A stretch of 32,000 nucleotides of DNA from Candidatus Thorarchaeota archaeon (GCA_008080745.1 SHMX01000001.1:90001-122000), one strand, 5' to 3'; shown: positions 14,071-22,535, counted from the stretch's first letter. Notes: generated by a model not told the origin, from the letters alone. Translations and numbers: made by a program.

Positions 14071-14856
14071 ATGATAAGAATTTGTTTGGCAAACGATGAT
14101 GGTCCAGAAGGAAGAGGATTAGAAGTACTTGCAGACAACCTCTCAGAATTAGGTGAGGTGATTGTTGTTGTGCCAGATCAGCAGAGAAGTGGTTCGGGTA
14201 AGAGTATGACTCTAAACCATCCTTTGAGAATAACTGAAACAAAGACTAATTCAGGACTTACAATGCTAAAACATAGTGGAAAGCCCGCAGACTCTGTAGT
14301 TATTGCTACTTCCTTCTTTGATGATATAGATATCTTTGTAGCGGGAATTAATGCAGGTGCTAATCTAGGTTATCAAAGCATGATGACAAGTGGAACAGTT
14401 GGAATTGCAATGGAAGCAGCCATTCTCGGGTATCCATCTGTGGCTGTGTCAATGGCAGTCAATCCCAATGAATGGTTTGATAATCATGCTACAAATAGAG
14501 ATTATGCGGAAATGAGCAAGATTGCCACATGTATCATAAAAGGAGTAATCGATAATGGTCTTCCTGAAGGTATAGACGCGCTTAACATTAATTTTCCTTT
14601 GAGCCTAAACGATAATCCAGAAATAATCGCCGCAAAACCAGTACGATTGAGAATGAGTAATTCTCTCGAGCAAAGAACAGATCCAAATCAATCCACATAC
14701 TATTGGATTGATGGTAAATTCCAAGATATACCCGAAAGAACAGATGCTTACATAGTATTAGTGGAGTCAAATATTTCCGTTTCACCAATTGTTATTGAAA
14801 CTGTTAAAGATGAAGAGGTTGAAAGGGTCAAAGGTTTCCTTGACTTATTGACCTAA
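14071..14856 (+). CDS. surE: 5'/3'-nucleotidase SurE
   Basis: Motifs NDDG, QRSGSG, GKPADSV, GINAGANLG and SGTVGIAMEA. Confidence 0.93.
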   Translation: MIRICLANDDGPEGRGLEVLADNLSELGEVIVVVPDQQRSGSGKSMTLNHPLRITETKTNSGLTMLKHSGKPADSVVIATSFFDDIDIFVAGINAGANLGYQSMMTSGTVGIAMEAAILGYPSVAVSMAVNPNEWFDNHATNRDYAEMSKIATCIIKGVIDNGLPEGIDALNINFPLSLNDNPEIIAAKPVRLRMSNSLEQRTDPNQSTYYWIDGKFQDIPERTDAYIVLVESNISVSPIVIETVKDEEVERVKGFLDLLT

Positions 14857-15844
14857 GGGCGTTCCACAAGGCATCGTTTGTGGGGCGTGGAAGCAGTTCC
14901 TTCTGGCCATTTCGCAAGATAACACGTTTGTTCTCTTTTTTCGTGAAGTGTCCTATCTTAGTTGAGGATATATTTACCGATTTGAGAGCATCTAAAACAT
15001 CTTCTGCAGTCCCCTTCTCACAGGAAATCAGCATGCAGCCACTACTTATCAAATGAAGAGCTTCAATATCCAACAGTCTACAAATCTCTATTGTAGAAGG
15101 ATGAATTGGAATTGACTTGGCATCTATAACAACACCCAATTCACTAGCGTCACATATCTCATGGATTCCATTAGCTATACCCCCCTCTGTAGGATCATGC
15201 ATAGCGCTAACATAACCGGTCTGAAAAGCATGTACTCCCTCCTTTACGACACTTATCTGCTCTTTGAGTGCTTTTGCATCTTCAACAAGCTGCTTATCAA
15301 GTTGAGATTCAAGATAAGATTCACCCTCGGTGGCAATAATAGCTGTTCCTTCCAATCCTGCATATTTTGTGAGAAGTAGCTCATCACCAATCTTAGCTCC
15401 AGCAGTAGTGACATATTGGTCTTTTTTGGTAATTCCCATCATAAAACCAGCAATTATAGGACGATTGATTCCTTCTGTAACTTCAGTATGTCCACCAACA
15501 ACAGCTATATCTAACGAATTTGCTGCGGAATCAATTTGTTTCATGATTCTTACGAGAGTATGCTCATCTGTGCCATAGGGCAAAAGGATTGAAGAAAGAA
15601 ACCAAGAAGGAGGTACACCAAAAGTAGCGATATCATTGGCATTAATATGAACAGCTAACCAACCAATATCAGAAATAGATCCTGTAATTGGATCTGTAGC
15701 TGCAACCAATACATGGTCTCCGATTTTAATGAGCGAGGCATCTTCGCCCAAACCAGGCCCAAGAATGACTGAGGAATTTGATTTCCCTAAATGCGAAAAG
15801 ACATATTTAGCAAGTATATCAGGTGGAACTTTCCCGGGCTGCAA
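14828..15844 (-). CDS. AIR synthase-related protein (PurM/HypE-like superfamily)
   Basis: Motifs GKVPP, GPGLGEDA, TDPITG, HINANDIA, VGGHTE, AMHDPTEGG and SSGCML. TTG start preceded by GAGGGAG. Confidence 0.85.
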   Translation of the reverse strand: MQPGKVPPDILAKYVFSHLGKSNSSVILGPGLGEDASLIKIGDHVLVAATDPITGSISDIGWLAVHINANDIATFGVPPSWFLSSILLPYGTDEHTLVRIMKQIDSAANSLDIAVVGGHTEVTEGINRPIIAGFMMGITKKDQYVTTAGAKIGDELLLTKYAGLEGTAIIATEGESYLESQLDKQLVEDAKALKEQISVVKEGVHAFQTGYVSAMHDPTEGGIANGIHEICDASELGVVIDAKSIPIHPSTIEICRLLDIEALHLISSGCMLISCEKGTAEDVLDALKSVNISSTKIGHFTKKENKRVILRNGQKELLPRPTNDALWNALRSISQGNL

Positions 15845-16027: not shown

Positions 16028-17461
16028 CTATGGAGCAATGTATGATTCCGCTGCTTTCAGGTCCTCGGAACGTATTACTGCTCTACTATGAGCCCCAGCA
16101 AGGAACTCATTCAGTATTGAGTCCTTTTTCAGTAATTCTTTAGAAAGGAAACATTTCCCGCCTCCAACTCTTGCAATCAGATAGGCACCAAAGGTCTGTC
16201 TGAACTCGGGGACTGCCAATATTGTTTCAATGGGATCATCATAACCTTCCTTCTTCATTCTGAGCATGGTAGCTAATTCAAGAGCTTCATGATAGGGTCG
16301 TTTGAGAACTCGAATCCAGTTCAATTGGGATGGGTCAACATTTACTGTTGCTAATCGTACATCAGACTTTTTGGCAATTCTTGCTGCACGAACAATATCT
16401 CGAACGGGAGTATAAGACTGATGACCTGGACCGACGGATTGAGCCAGTGGAATATTCGGTGCAAAATCCGAGATGATGATAATCAGAGGTTCAACATCAC
16501 GGTTCCTCATTCGTTCCCTCTTGATAATCTCAAGTGATTTCATCACAGCCTCAGCAAGAGGTGTAAGACCCGATATTCGTAATTTGGCTAATGCTCGGTA
16601 TAACTTATTCCAATTTGTAGTTGGAGCTTGTACTTCGATTGCTCCGCTTTCCTTAAAGGCAACAATTCCCGTTCGGTCTTTAGATCCACGGGTTTCTCTC
16701 TCGATACGTTCGAGTAATTTTCGAATCTGATCTCTACTTGCTTTCATAGACAAGCTGACATCAATTACAAGCAAGATAGTCAATGGAGTATGGCCGGTAA
16801 ATACTCGCTCGCGGATATCCGAGGACTGAATCTTCAAACGTTCACCTGGTTCTAATTTTCCCGTTCTAGTTATAGCGGATAATATGGTTGAGGGTAAATC
16901 AATACTCCCAACTTCACCAGTGGGTTGTCGAGACCTAATTGGGCGTCCATATTGCTGGGTTTCTGAAGCCTTGAGAGAACCTACTCCTCGAGAGCTTACT
17001 CTCTTGTGAATCCATCCACCAGAGGAGATTTTGGATCGAATCATGGCCTTTGAACTGAGCTCGTCTACCTCAAACACTGGTTCTCCAGTATCCAAATCAG
17101 GAGTTTTTACAAAAAAGTCCCTACCTAAATCTACTGGAGGGTCTCGTATCTCGGACTTGGATCCAATGACCTTCGATTTATGTTTAGCCTTGTATGGCAT
17201 GGATGCCTTACCCCATTGATCACCATCTTCAGCCTTTGCAGGTCCTGCTTCAACAGTATCAATTCCACCAGCTGGACCTTTTTGTCGTTTAGTCATAGTT
17301 CGAAGCCAACGACGTACAGTATAGTAAATCAAAGGAGCATAGAGAATGGTTACCAAAATTGTTAGGGGGAGGGGAAGTAGTGTGCCAATCTGTGTGCCAG
17401 TAATGAAGTGAAATGGATTAAAGAAAATCCACCCGAAGTAACCAAAAACAACAACCGCCAT
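16028..17461 (-). CDS. Membrane-anchored vWA domain protein, C-terminal half of a ChlD/BchD-like chelatase subunit (probably expressed by -1 frameshift)
   Basis: MIDAS motif IDVSLS, plus GLTPL and ISDF, with two N-terminal hydrophobic segments. The reading frame stays open upstream of the ATG to 17527, overlapping the end of the AAA+ ORF. Confidence 0.8.
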   Translation of the reverse strand: MAVVVFGYFGWIFFNPFHFITGTQIGTLLPLPLTILVTILYAPLIYYTVRRWLRTMTKRQKGPAGGIDTVEAGPAKAEDGDQWGKASMPYKAKHKSKVIGSKSEIRDPPVDLGRDFFVKTPDLDTGEPVFEVDELSSKAMIRSKISSGGWIHKRVSSRGVGSLKASETQQYGRPIRSRQPTGEVGSIDLPSTILSAITRTGKLEPGERLKIQSSDIRERVFTGHTPLTILLVIDVSLSMKASRDQIRKLLERIERETRGSKDRTGIVAFKESGAIEVQAPTTNWNKLYRALAKLRISGLTPLAEAVMKSLEIIKRERMRNRDVEPLIIIISDFAPNIPLAQSVGPGHQSYTPVRDIVRAARIAKKSDVRLATVNVDPSQLNWIRVLKRPYHEALELATMLRMKKEGYDDPIETILAVPEFRQTFGAYLIARVGGGKCFLSKELLKKDSILNEFLAGAHSRAVIRSEDLKAAESYIAP

Positions 17462-17505
17462 AATGGCACATATTGTTCCTTTAATGGGGTCACCTCGGGG
17501 GTTCC

Positions 17506-18723
17506 TTATTTTTTTGGGCGTTTTTTTTTACCTTCCTGGGAACCTCCGACACCAAATCGGTGTTGTCGACCAAATTTGCCCCCGCTGAACCGTTTCTCGC
17601 TCCCAGATTCATCAGAAGAGTCTTTTTCCTCGGGAGGAACCTGTGTAGGGGATTTGCGCCGGTCCTTCTTCTCGGTAACATCAGCCGCTCTGGCAATCGC
17701 TCGGCTGATATCTTCTGGTACGGGAGGTTCGAGTAATCCACCTCTTCGGGTTCTGTGACTCAAAGTAAGTTGTGCTGCAAGTTGCATATCATCCAGAGAA
17801 ACTTCTTTTCTGCCATCTAGTGCAGCATTTGTGATTGCAGTCTTACTGATGATGATATCTGGACGGACTCCATCTACCTCCAATGCATCACACGCCATTG
17901 CGATTGCCCGGAGTTTACTATCAGATAAGATAACCTCTGAAAGTAACACCTGTGCGTTTTGTATACGTTCTCGAAGTTCTTGTTGATAAGGAGCATAATC
18001 TGTTCTGAAAGCATGGGGATCAGCCTCAAACTCCAAATTACGTCGAACTAGTTCCATTCTCTCCTCAATCGAGTGGTCGGAACTAACAGATACATGTAAT
18101 GGAAATCTATCCAATAGTTGGGGTCTCAGTTCACCCTCTTCTGGATTCATAGAACCCATGAGAATGAAATTTGAGGGGTGGGATATTGAAATCCCTTCTC
18201 GTTCTATGACATTTACCTTTGTCGCAGCCGCATCAAGTAAATCGTCAACAAGATGGTCTGGTAAAAGATTAACCTCATCAACGTAGAGAACGTTTTGGTG
18301 AGCTTCTGCAAGAATTCCAGGTTTAAGTGCTTGAATTCCTTCTTGGAGAACCCTCTCAATATCGAGAGCTCCAATAAGACGGTCTTCAGTAGTTGAGAGG
18401 GGGAGATTTACTACTCGCATCTCTCTTTTCTGAGGTATCAATTCTTCTCCTGATGCAATCTTTGCTTGGCATTCTTCACATAAAGATTCCATATTGAAAG
18501 GATTGCACCCAAACCGACAGCCCTCTACGACATCGACTTCTGGTAGAAGATCTGCTAAGGCACGAACCACGGTTGTCTTTCCAGTCCCCTTAGGACCAGA
18601 AACCAAGACCCCACCTATTCTGGGATTTATTCCGTTTAGAATCAATGCTAATTTTAGTCTATCAAGTCCAACGAGTGCCGTAAATGGAAGAACTGAACGC
18701 TTTGATGTGACCACGACAACCAT
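17506..18723 (-). CDS. chlI: Mg/Co-chelatase ChlI/BchI-like AAA+ ATPase (N-terminal half of a chlD-like gene)
   Basis: LPFTALVG, Walker A GPKGTGKT, TEDRLIG, Walker B VDEVNLL, MNPEEGELRPQLLDRF, DGVRPDI, LSHRTRR, then a Pro/charged linker. Confidence 0.92.
   Translation of the reverse strand: MVVVVTSKRSVLPFTALVGLDRLKLALILNGINPRIGGVLVSGPKGTGKTTVVRALADLLPEVDVVEGCRFGCNPFNMESLCEECQAKIASGEELIPQKREMRVVNLPLSTTEDRLIGALDIERVLQEGIQALKPGILAEAHQNVLYVDEVNLLPDHLVDDLLDAAATKVNVIEREGISISHPSNFILMGSMNPEEGELRPQLLDRFPLHVSVSSDHSIEERMELVRRNLEFEADPHAFRTDYAPYQQELRERIQNAQVLLSEVILSDSKLRAIAMACDALEVDGVRPDIIISKTAITNAALDGRKEVSLDDMQLAAQLTLSHRTRRGGLLEPPVPEDISRAIARAADVTEKKDRRKSPTQVPPEEKDSSDESGSEKRFSGGKFGRQHRFGVGGSQEGKKKRPKK
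17509..17547 (-). other. Candidate -1 programmed frameshift or slippage signal
   Basis: Minus strand reads GGAGG (17547-17543), 13 nt, then ggT AAA AAA AAA CGC CCA AAA AAA TAA. This gives an A9 run (17529-17521) and an A7 run (17515-17509), each forming an in-frame A_AAA_AAA heptamer. The -1 frame is open from the A9 run into the vWA ORF. Confidence 0.7.
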
Positions 18724-21866: not shown

Positions 21867-22535
21867 CTAACTCTGAGCTTCTTTTTCCCGTTCTTCTTTT
21901 GCTTCACGTTCAAGATCAGCCAGCATAGCATCAATTCTCTTCTCTTCTGAGGGGGTCTTTTCACCTGAGGCAGAAGCTTCCATTTCACGCTCTTCTTCAA
22001 GAGGCGGAAGAACACCTTCTTTCTCCAATAAGACCTCAGCCTCGATAGCGTCTAGCTCGCGATCAATTCGTTCTTCAGCTTCCAGCGTAGTAGATGAACT
22101 GGATAGGTCTTCAGATAGCAACTCTCCGGCAATAGAAATATGTTCAAAGGACTGTGATAGTCTATCCAATTGCATCTGAATTTCAGTAGGACTTAGCATT
22201 TCACGAGCCTGTGTAAGAGCCGCATTTGCAATCTTGAATGCACTTAGAACCTCAGCTTGGTCTTGAGCTTCTTCGAGATTCATCAATGCGGTTTCCAGGG
22301 TAGTTACTTGTTGACGATATCTTCCCTTTCTTCCTTCAAGATCAACCACGACACTCAGATGGGACCTTGCCGAGGTCCTATCTCCACGTTTCATTGCTTC
22401 TCTTGCGGCTTTACGTTCCTCAGCCATTCGAGTATCAAGGCGTCTAATACGTAAAGTAAGAGCATTCATAGTGCCTTTAATCTCAAGTATGCCGCGCTCA
22501 GAGTCTACTTTTTTCTTCCCGCTCAAAAAACCCAT
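21867..22535 (-). CDS. ESCRT-III/Snf7 family protein (Vps20/32/60-like)
   Basis: Basic N-terminus MGFLSGKKK, heptad helices, LETALMNLEEAQDQAEVLSAFKIANAAL (parallel to Snf7 LENANTNTEVLKNM), acidic C-terminus with EERIDRELDAIE and a terminal amphipathic helix. Confidence 0.82.
   Translation of the reverse strand: MGFLSGKKKVDSERGILEIKGTMNALTLRIRRLDTRMAEERKAAREAMKRGDRTSARSHLSVVVDLEGRKGRYRQQVTTLETALMNLEEAQDQAEVLSAFKIANAALTQAREMLSPTEIQMQLDRLSQSFEHISIAGELLSEDLSSSSTTLEAEERIDRELDAIEAEVLLEKEGVLPPLEEEREMEASASGEKTPSEEKRIDAMLADLEREAKEEREKEAQS

Follow-up and report, generated by a model that had tools for sequence, protein, structure and literature searches.

Recoding of "magnesium chelatase" genes in the −1 direction on A_AAA_AAR or poly-A sites has been studied in Pseudomonas, Delftia, Herpetosiphon, Methanocaldococcus and others, with reporter efficiencies of 63%, 40% and 10% for runs of 11, 9 and 7 A's, respectively (PMC3711429). 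The subject has been reviewed (PMC5009743; PMC8211752), and few archaeal frameshifts are documented (PMC8211752). Frameshifted chlD genes, known as fs-chlD, are found in all major phyla, including hosts that lack CobN/ChlH or the chlorophyll and B12 pathways (PMC9227772). The gene considered here lies in a stretch of 32,000 nucleotides (hereafter "the window"; GCA_008080745.1 SHMX01000001.1:90001–122000) from Candidatus Thorarchaeota archaeon. The source is a metagenome-assembled genome of a Thorarchaeota (Asgard) organism from marine sediment, comprising 3.16 Mb in 19 contigs and 98% complete, and is referred to as G000. An original prediction, made from the sequence of the window by itself, held that positions 16028–18723 encode a chelatase-like gene that uses frameshifting to make both a soluble AAA+ protein and a membrane-anchored fusion of AAA+, two transmembrane (TM) helices and a vWA domain. 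Its statement that frameshifting of chlD had been described before agrees with the literature (PMC3711429; PMC9227772). The principle of the recoding is therefore already known; the unusual parts are the membrane anchor and the missing tetrapyrrole pathway.

The follow-up analysis supports the existence of a single chlD-type recoded gene, predicted to give a 405-aa soluble ATPase and an 898-aa membrane-anchored AAA+/vWA fusion, with a probability of roughly 85%. The evidence comes from a conserved frame offset and A-run, from protein coding in the −1 frame, and from relatives in which the two halves are fused in frame. All of the sequence features reported initially, namely the reading frames, the tandem heptamers, the GGAGG 13 nt upstream of the first A-run and the predicted 898-aa product, were found again. 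The first open reading frame (ORF1) is the single ChlI-like gene of the genome, and its 3′ end reads GGT AAA AAA AAA CGC CCA AAA AAA TAA. Read in the ORF1 frame, both A-runs are X_XXY_YYZ heptamers. In the −1 frame, a TAA (GG TAA AA) directly precedes the A9 run, after which this frame is open, via ..KKTPKKIRNPRGDPIKGTICAI-M.., into the second open reading frame (ORF2). A slip at either A9 or A7 would yield 898 aa, the sole difference being residue 402 (Thr vs Arg). The features of the locus, in window coordinates, are as follows.

16028–18723, minus strand: the whole recoded gene, defined by its frames and conservation; the 0 frame is predicted to give a 405-aa ChlI-like ATPase and a −1 slip an 898-aa AAA+/2TM/linker/vWA protein.
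17506–18723, minus strand: ORF1, a ChlI-type AAA+ ATPase of 405 aa, from its translation and its profile and structure matches.
17521–17529, minus strand: the A9 run (GGT AAA AAA AAA C), the family-wide candidate slip site, either as an A_AAA_AAA heptamer or as a transcriptional slippage tract.
17506–17515, minus strand: the second heptamer, A_AAA_AAA (17509–17515), with the ORF1 stop codon TAA (17506–17508); seen only in this genus (G000 and G001).
17429–17501, minus strand: a predicted 29-bp stem-loop, from folding z-scores and the comparison of G000 with G001.
17462–17520, minus strand: the trans-frame segment in the −1 frame, ..TPKKIRNPRGDPIKGTICAI, which has no ATG, GTG or TTG and is kept as protein.
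17420–17476, minus strand: predicted TM helix 1, TICAIMAVVVFGYFGWIFF, from hydropathy and AlphaFold2.
17321–17383, minus strand: predicted TM helix 2, followed by RRWLR, from hydropathy and AlphaFold2.
16790–17320, minus strand: a linker of ~170 aa, with invariant motifs and AlphaFold2-predicted disorder.
16127–16789, minus strand: the vWA domain, with an intact metal-ion-dependent adhesion site (MIDAS) and a helical C-terminal part, from Pfam, structure matches and conservation.
ATG 17461 to stop 16028, minus strand: ORF2 (2TM + vWA), 477 aa, in the −1 frame relative to ORF1.

Support for a recoded gene came from a comparison of related loci. Eighteen species-level genomes from 16 genera and 34 metagenome loci gave 52 scorable loci; the metagenome loci were found with an alignment-based scan, an earlier scan with a single protein having yielded none. 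Relative to the AAA+ half, the vWA half is shifted to the −1 frame at 17 of the 18 genome loci, and at 49 of 52 when the metagenome loci are included, so the alignment of orthologues asked for in the original prediction shows both the frame break and the A-run to be conserved. The runs at the 49 loci with a −1 offset are A9 (33 loci), A10 (9), A11 (2), A7 (1) and A9G (4); 44 of the 45 with a pure A-run have A9–A11, and every one of the 49 carries A_AAA_AAA or A_AAA_AAG in the ORF1 frame. AAA accounts for 42% of the Lys codons elsewhere in the same genes, and for just 2 of 27 in one locus (L020). The persistence of the A-run despite this low usage of AAA indicates that it is selected at the nucleotide level. 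Runs of A or T of at least 9 nt occur just 11 times in the 3.16-Mb genome, and none of them, apart from the chlD site, falls in an overlap of two ORFs anywhere in the genome, which leaves no further recoding candidates of this kind. By a rough estimate, 11 such runs are fewer than base composition predicts. The halves of the relatives are 53–88% identical at the amino-acid level and retain intact Walker and MIDAS motifs, both being under purifying selection.

The original prediction named a homopolymer assembly error as one possible refutation. Over 17300–17700, the Logan contigs assembled from two runs (46x and 125x) are identical to the window and reproduce both A9 and A7; none of the runs found to contain the locus was from RNA. 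The two runs are probably the source samples, making this a re-assembly rather than an independent sample; contigs cannot reveal minority variants of run length, and the comparative data outweigh the re-assembly. The frame break is genuine and is not an assembly error.

Under the favored reading, standard decoding would end at the TAA (17508–17506) to give the 405-aa soluble ChlI-like AAA+ ATPase, and in a fraction of expression events a slip to the −1 frame would occur on the A-rich tract, at A9 and, in this genus, also at A7. Both the slip and its efficiency are inferred. The tandem heptamers emphasized originally proved to be of two kinds: the A9 site is family-wide, and the second heptamer is limited to this genus. 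G000 and G001 both carry CCA AAA AAA TAA, with the A7 heptamer abutting the stop codon. In G001, A9 is interrupted (AAAAAGAAA), and A7, the stop codon and the hairpin are retained. The 29-bp hairpin starts 7 nt past the A7 heptamer, an arrangement of heptamer, 5–9-nt spacer and stem-loop found in this genus alone. Together, A7, the stop codon, the 7-nt spacer and the hairpin make up a classical −1 ribosomal frameshift cassette. Folding z-scores for the hairpin were −5.5 here, −2.4 in G001 and −1.8 to +0.8 in 17 other loci; a further z-score for the stem-loop was −3.8. G000 and G001 differ at 18 of 85 nt. Among the 29 hairpin pairs, 20 are the same in both, 5 have a compatible change on one side, 3 have compensatory changes and 1 is broken, with the 3 compensatory pair changes being synonymous third-position changes. 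A protein search for more members of the genus returned only G001 (85% identity), so the covariation rests on two sequences. The retention of heptamer, stop codon and hairpin in G001 favors ribosomal −1 frameshifting for this genome, possibly added to slippage at A9.

Two candidate stimulators were rejected as conserved elements. A family-wide stimulatory structure found no support, because RNAalifold predicted no pairs. The GGAGG upstream of A9 had been proposed as a Shine–Dalgarno (SD)-like stimulator; GGAGG occurs within 25 nt upstream at 5 of the 52 loci, and any GGAG or GAGG at 12 of 52, at scattered distances. A search of the genome with aragorn gave 22 tRNAs, none of them for Lys, and the 3′ end of the 16S rRNA was not found, which is uninformative.

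With neither a family-wide structure nor a conserved SD element, and with runs of A9–A11, both structure-independent frameshifting and transcriptional slippage fit the family as a whole. In the latter case, RNA polymerase would slip on the A9–A11 template and add one A to some mRNAs, giving the same two products without any ribosomal shift. The runs of 9–11 nt in nearly all loci are long enough for this, homopolymers of at least 8 nt being typical for transcriptional realignment, and reporter efficiency grew with run length (PMC3711429). Conserved downstream structure and an SD-like element are both absent across the family, and natural alleles with one more A, or with a +1 offset (L039), would be easily tolerated if the mRNA pool were already mixed. 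However, a heptamer placed in three Lys codons already explains A9, so that run length does not discriminate between the two mechanisms, and the A7 of G001, its only run, is short for slippage to work efficiently and is accompanied by a stop codon and by a hairpin spaced as in frameshift sites. Transcriptional slippage is a credible contender, although at distinctly less than even odds, and since it is compatible with ribosomal frameshifting it is not an exclusive alternative.

Several observations weigh against a single recoded gene. The Met codon at 17461 is kept in most relatives, and some independent initiation is possible. In two lineages (L018 and L019) a more downstream ORF1 stop shares bases with the ATG (TAATG), as is typical where translation is coupled, and four relatives have GTG in place of ATA at the codon that overlaps the stop. 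The existence of in-frame and +1 alleles means that the DNA itself differs in run length. The hairpin is backed by two species, and RNAalifold gives no pairs across the family. Both the 405-aa and the 898-aa products are predictions from the reading frames, and the putative function is drawn from homology.

One alternative is two separate genes, with translation of the TM-vWA protein beginning either at ATG 17461 or, through termination-reinitiation, at the stop-overlapping codon, and the A-run being no more than a Lys-rich tail. Public annotations do give the halves as separate proteins, and the conserved Met, the TAATG overlaps and the GTGA overlap in four loci are all in keeping with this model. 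Nevertheless, the 16–20 codons before the ATG are kept as protein and contain no start codon. For a block of 19 codons that surrounds the ORF1 stop and precedes the ATG, column entropy was 0.57, 0.37 and 1.38 at −1-frame positions 1, 2 and 3, respectively. Immediately past the run, changes within ACN CCN are silent for Thr-Pro in the −1 frame but, read in the 0 frame, exchange Leu and Arg. At 11 of 19 loci the ORF1 stop overlaps an ATA, which is no start codon, and at this locus ATG, GTG and TTG are absent from the −1 frame between the ORF1 stop and ATG 17461. The best hydropathy window of TM helix 1 begins 5 codons upstream of that ATG, and the helix would be cut short in a protein starting there. 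A start-less stretch conserved as protein, and a TM helix truncated at the Met, argue against an independent ORF2. In addition, ATG 17461 lies at the apex of the strong hairpin, with two of its three bases paired, and this genome has no SD-like element 5–10 nt before it; the A-run is retained against codon usage; and fused orthologues and in-frame alleles exist. Two separate genes are thus improbable. Coding in the −1 frame, the anatomy of the gene and its conservation are shown by the data.

The in-frame alleles are found in four of ~62 family genomes (G012, G117, G222 with A10, and G285 with A11), in a metagenome contig (L026, A11) and in a JGI protein of 880 aa, and each one checked has exactly one A more than its split relatives. 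Another metagenome contig, L039, has the usual A9 and a 1-nt deletion just upstream (~2410–2445) that puts the vWA frame at +1; it may be a real allele that needs deletion of an A or a +1 shift, or an assembly error. These variants raise the possibility of a phase-variable switch at the DNA level (a contingency locus), with replication slippage toggling between split and fused genotypes. A free switch should fill all three frames, but over 90% of species, drawn from 16 genera, are fixed for the −1 state. The two assemblies (46x and 125x) show one run length, although contigs hide minority variants, and some in-frame calls may be homopolymer assembly errors. Phase variation is very improbable. 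A sequencing or assembly error, or a pseudogene, can be set aside as having a negligible chance: homopolymers are error-prone and one more A puts a few relatives in frame, but the same offset recurs at independent loci, the re-assemblies are identical, and purifying selection acts on both halves.

The predicted products of the recoded gene can be described in some detail. ORF1 matches AAA_5, AAA_lid_2 and Mg_chelatase in Pfam, its translation contains Walker A (GPKGTGKT), Walker B (LYVDEVN), sensor and Arg-finger motifs, and it matches solved ChlI structures (6l8d) with an E value of 2e-97; it ends in a basic tail, KKKRPKK. The AAA+ module contains a four-Cys insert, GCRFGCNP...CEEC, at ORF1 residues ~68–86 (window 18490–18550, minus strand), which is also present in a fused relative (L017) and looks like a small metal-binding knuckle. 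The best-matching family is the fused-protein model TIGR02442, of which ORF1 covers positions 2–353 and ORF2 positions 401–596; the TM segment and linker amount to an insertion of ~150 aa relative to the model. Scored separately, the halves reach 455 and 80 bits, a sum below the cut-off of 779. ORF1 scores 385 bits against the ChlI model (TIGR02030; cut-off 467), and ORF1 and ORF2 score 233 and 57 bits against the ChlD model (TIGR02031; cut-off 500). A bpMoxR match of the gene, at 24.4 bits, is under its cut-off of 27, and the ChlI-type families are far stronger.

ORF2 is a vWA domain protein by Pfam, with VWA_CoxE among the matches. Among PDB sequences, the vWA half matched just the integrin-I domain of BchD. 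An AlphaFold2 model of the vWA domain has the generic vWA fold, and NorD of NorQ/NorD (9qh8_G) is among its structural matches. The MIDAS residues D234, S236, S238, T300 and D332 are invariant among 15 relatives. The two TM helices originally placed between AAA+ and vWA are supported by two methods. A Kyte-Doolittle analysis (19-residue window) shows two hydrophobic segments after the junction, with maxima of 2.19 and 1.99, and AlphaFold2 predicts helices at residues 2–21 and 31–57 (predicted local distance difference test score, pLDDT, ~76–83). Basic residues flank the TM hairpin on both sides, suggesting that both ends, and hence both large domains, should face the cytoplasm. The linker (ORF2 residues 58–225) is predicted to be disordered, with pLDDT below 50, yet contains invariant GIDxVE, GDxxG, SKSxxR, SSGGW and GRxxR motifs, and probably folds on a partner.

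The long form would accordingly consist of the same AAA+ module as the short form, a basic patch, the two-helix hairpin with cytoplasmic ends, the ~170-aa linker and the MIDAS vWA domain. If they behave like ChlI/ChlD double rings and MoxR-vWA systems such as NorQ/NorD, the short and long forms would co-assemble as a membrane-tethered AAA+ ring, in which the vWA/MIDAS domains hold a membrane-proximal client and the short form supplies extra ATPase subunits. The original prediction's suggestions of remodelling or metal insertion on a non-tetrapyrrole client, and of a subunit ratio set by recoding, are likewise inferences.

Gene content and synteny bear on the function. The original prediction noted that the window has no ChlH/CobN, and this absence extends to the whole genome: no CobN, ChlH or BchH was found in the 98%-complete genome or in any of 61 family genomes, with control genomes being positive. 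HemB (ALAD), HemC and CbiX likewise had no match in this genome. These absences make classical chelatase activity on a self-made tetrapyrrole unlikely. No functional partner emerged from synteny, the genes that are syntenic throughout the family being the divergent ThrC, an AIR-synthase-like gene and SurE, which are housekeeping-like. In each locus of the family, the AIR-synthase-related (PurM-superfamily) gene is the next one downstream, here at window positions 14828–15844 on the minus strand. It is under all NCBIfam cut-offs (the best being HypE, ThiL and SelD) and does not have the HypE C-terminal Cys motif. In another Asgard family (f12), the nearest AIR-synthase-like gene is beside ThiN and is probably ThiL. 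The client is probably not a tetrapyrrole chelatase subunit and may be a membrane protein complex. A Snf7/ESCRT-III family gene located 3 kb away (window 21867–22535, minus strand) fits the Asgard origin of the contig.

The gene family is near-universal in Thorarchaeota, being present in 66 of 76 genomes, and orthologues also occur in other Asgard families. These orthologues (in 19 of 19 genomes of f12, and also in f8, f10 and f15) are continuous proteins of 856–900 aa with central TM segments, and the conserved A-run is absent from them. Identity is 28–37% in the vWA half and 44–57% in the AAA+ half. Continuous orthologues without the A-run imply that the AAA+/TM/vWA architecture predates the frame break. 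The break itself appears to be confined to this Thorarchaeota family and probably arose within it. For the sister families, continuous ORFs without the A-run predict no separate short subunit, and a separate TM-less chlI gene is absent from their checked genomes. A TM-less ChlD-like gene in a different Asgard family (f22, genus g44; L080–L085) has a −1 break at A10/A11 in four species; in a fifth, A11 leaves it in frame, and in another it is in frame with no run. Poly-A recoding of chlD-type genes thus recurs in Asgard archaea, at another point of the linker.

Taken together, these data lead to a broader proposal, made tentatively and rated a little short of an even chance. Thorarchaeota and several further Asgard families may possess a membrane-tethered ChlI/ChlD-type AAA+/MIDAS machine, unrelated to tetrapyrroles, that acts on a membrane-associated client by metal or cofactor insertion or by remodelling. 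In the Thorarchaeota family its ratio of free ATPase to anchored adaptor-ATPase would be fixed by recoding, and in one genus the signal would have been rebuilt from a bare poly-A slippage tract to a heptamer-stop-hairpin cassette. If this is true, the rebuilt signal would be a natural exchange between two recoding mechanisms at one site.

The locus bears on several wider questions. The protein clusters of this family that are annotated as a stand-alone "VWA domain-containing protein" or "Mg-chelatase subunit ChlD" number at least 170, and these annotations miss a predicted long product of ~890 aa with an AAA+ module and a complete TM helix 1. The role of ChlI/ChlD-type motors outside tetrapyrrole chemistry is a question left by earlier work (PMC9227772; PMC5009743). 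This near-universal family, with no CobN found in 61 of its genomes and no HemB, HemC or CbiX in the present one, offers a clean system for addressing it, and the membrane anchor narrows the search for clients to membrane-proximal candidates. More than 100 natural variants of the site are also available, among them in-frame alleles, a +1 allele and a structured cassette.

Like dnaX, the recoded gene would make two products with a common AAA+ N-terminal part. In dnaX, which encodes gamma and tau, recoding uses A_AAA_AAG in E. coli, where it is ribosomal and involves an SD element and a hairpin, and A9 in Thermus, where it is transcriptional; gamma and tau probably assemble together at a fixed ratio. 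There, however, shifting yields the short product; here it would yield the long one. The protein family is also unrelated, and the SD-like stimulator is not conserved here. MoxR and vWA pairs (NorQ/NorD, CbbQ/CbbO, RavA/ViaA and CoxD/CoxE) resemble the predicted assembly in combining an AAA+ ring with a MIDAS/vWA adaptor, which keeps the client in place while a cofactor is inserted or the client is remodelled. They differ in that the ATPase here is of the ChlI type, the partners would come from one recoded gene, and the vWA subunit would also have an AAA+ module and a TM hairpin.

Closer parallels are found in ChlI/ChlD (BchI/BchD) and CobS/CobT, which share the order AAA+/linker/vWA and to which the structure matches of ORF1 (ChlI) and of the vWA half (BchD) point. 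In contrast to Mg-chelatase and cobaltochelatase, no ChlH/CobN was found here in the genome or in the 61 family genomes, no HemB, HemC or CbiX was found in the genome, the long product is predicted to be membrane-anchored, and the scores fall under the NCBIfam cut-offs. The closest match is with fs-chlD. In both cases, a ChlI-like AAA+ ORF is followed by a vWA ORF in the −1 frame, and the two jointly match one fused ChlD-type protein; an A_AAA_AAR/poly-A site at the domain boundary is under purifying selection; fused homologues exist; and the halves are annotated as two genes. Spirochaeta thermophila and Brevefilum fermentans are hosts of fs-chlD that likewise lack CobN/ChlH and the chlorophyll and B12 pathways. 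A membrane-anchored form or a Thorarchaeota case found no mention in the literature searched, coverage of which was incomplete. Membranes are unmentioned in PMC9227772, whereas here a conserved two-helix membrane hairpin and a conserved ~170-aa linker lie between AAA+ and vWA. The published archaeal cases are from Methanococcales, and the present one is from Thorarchaeota. Finally, one genus here has a second, heptamer-stop-hairpin cassette, and in sister Asgard families the TM form is a continuous frame lacking the A-run.

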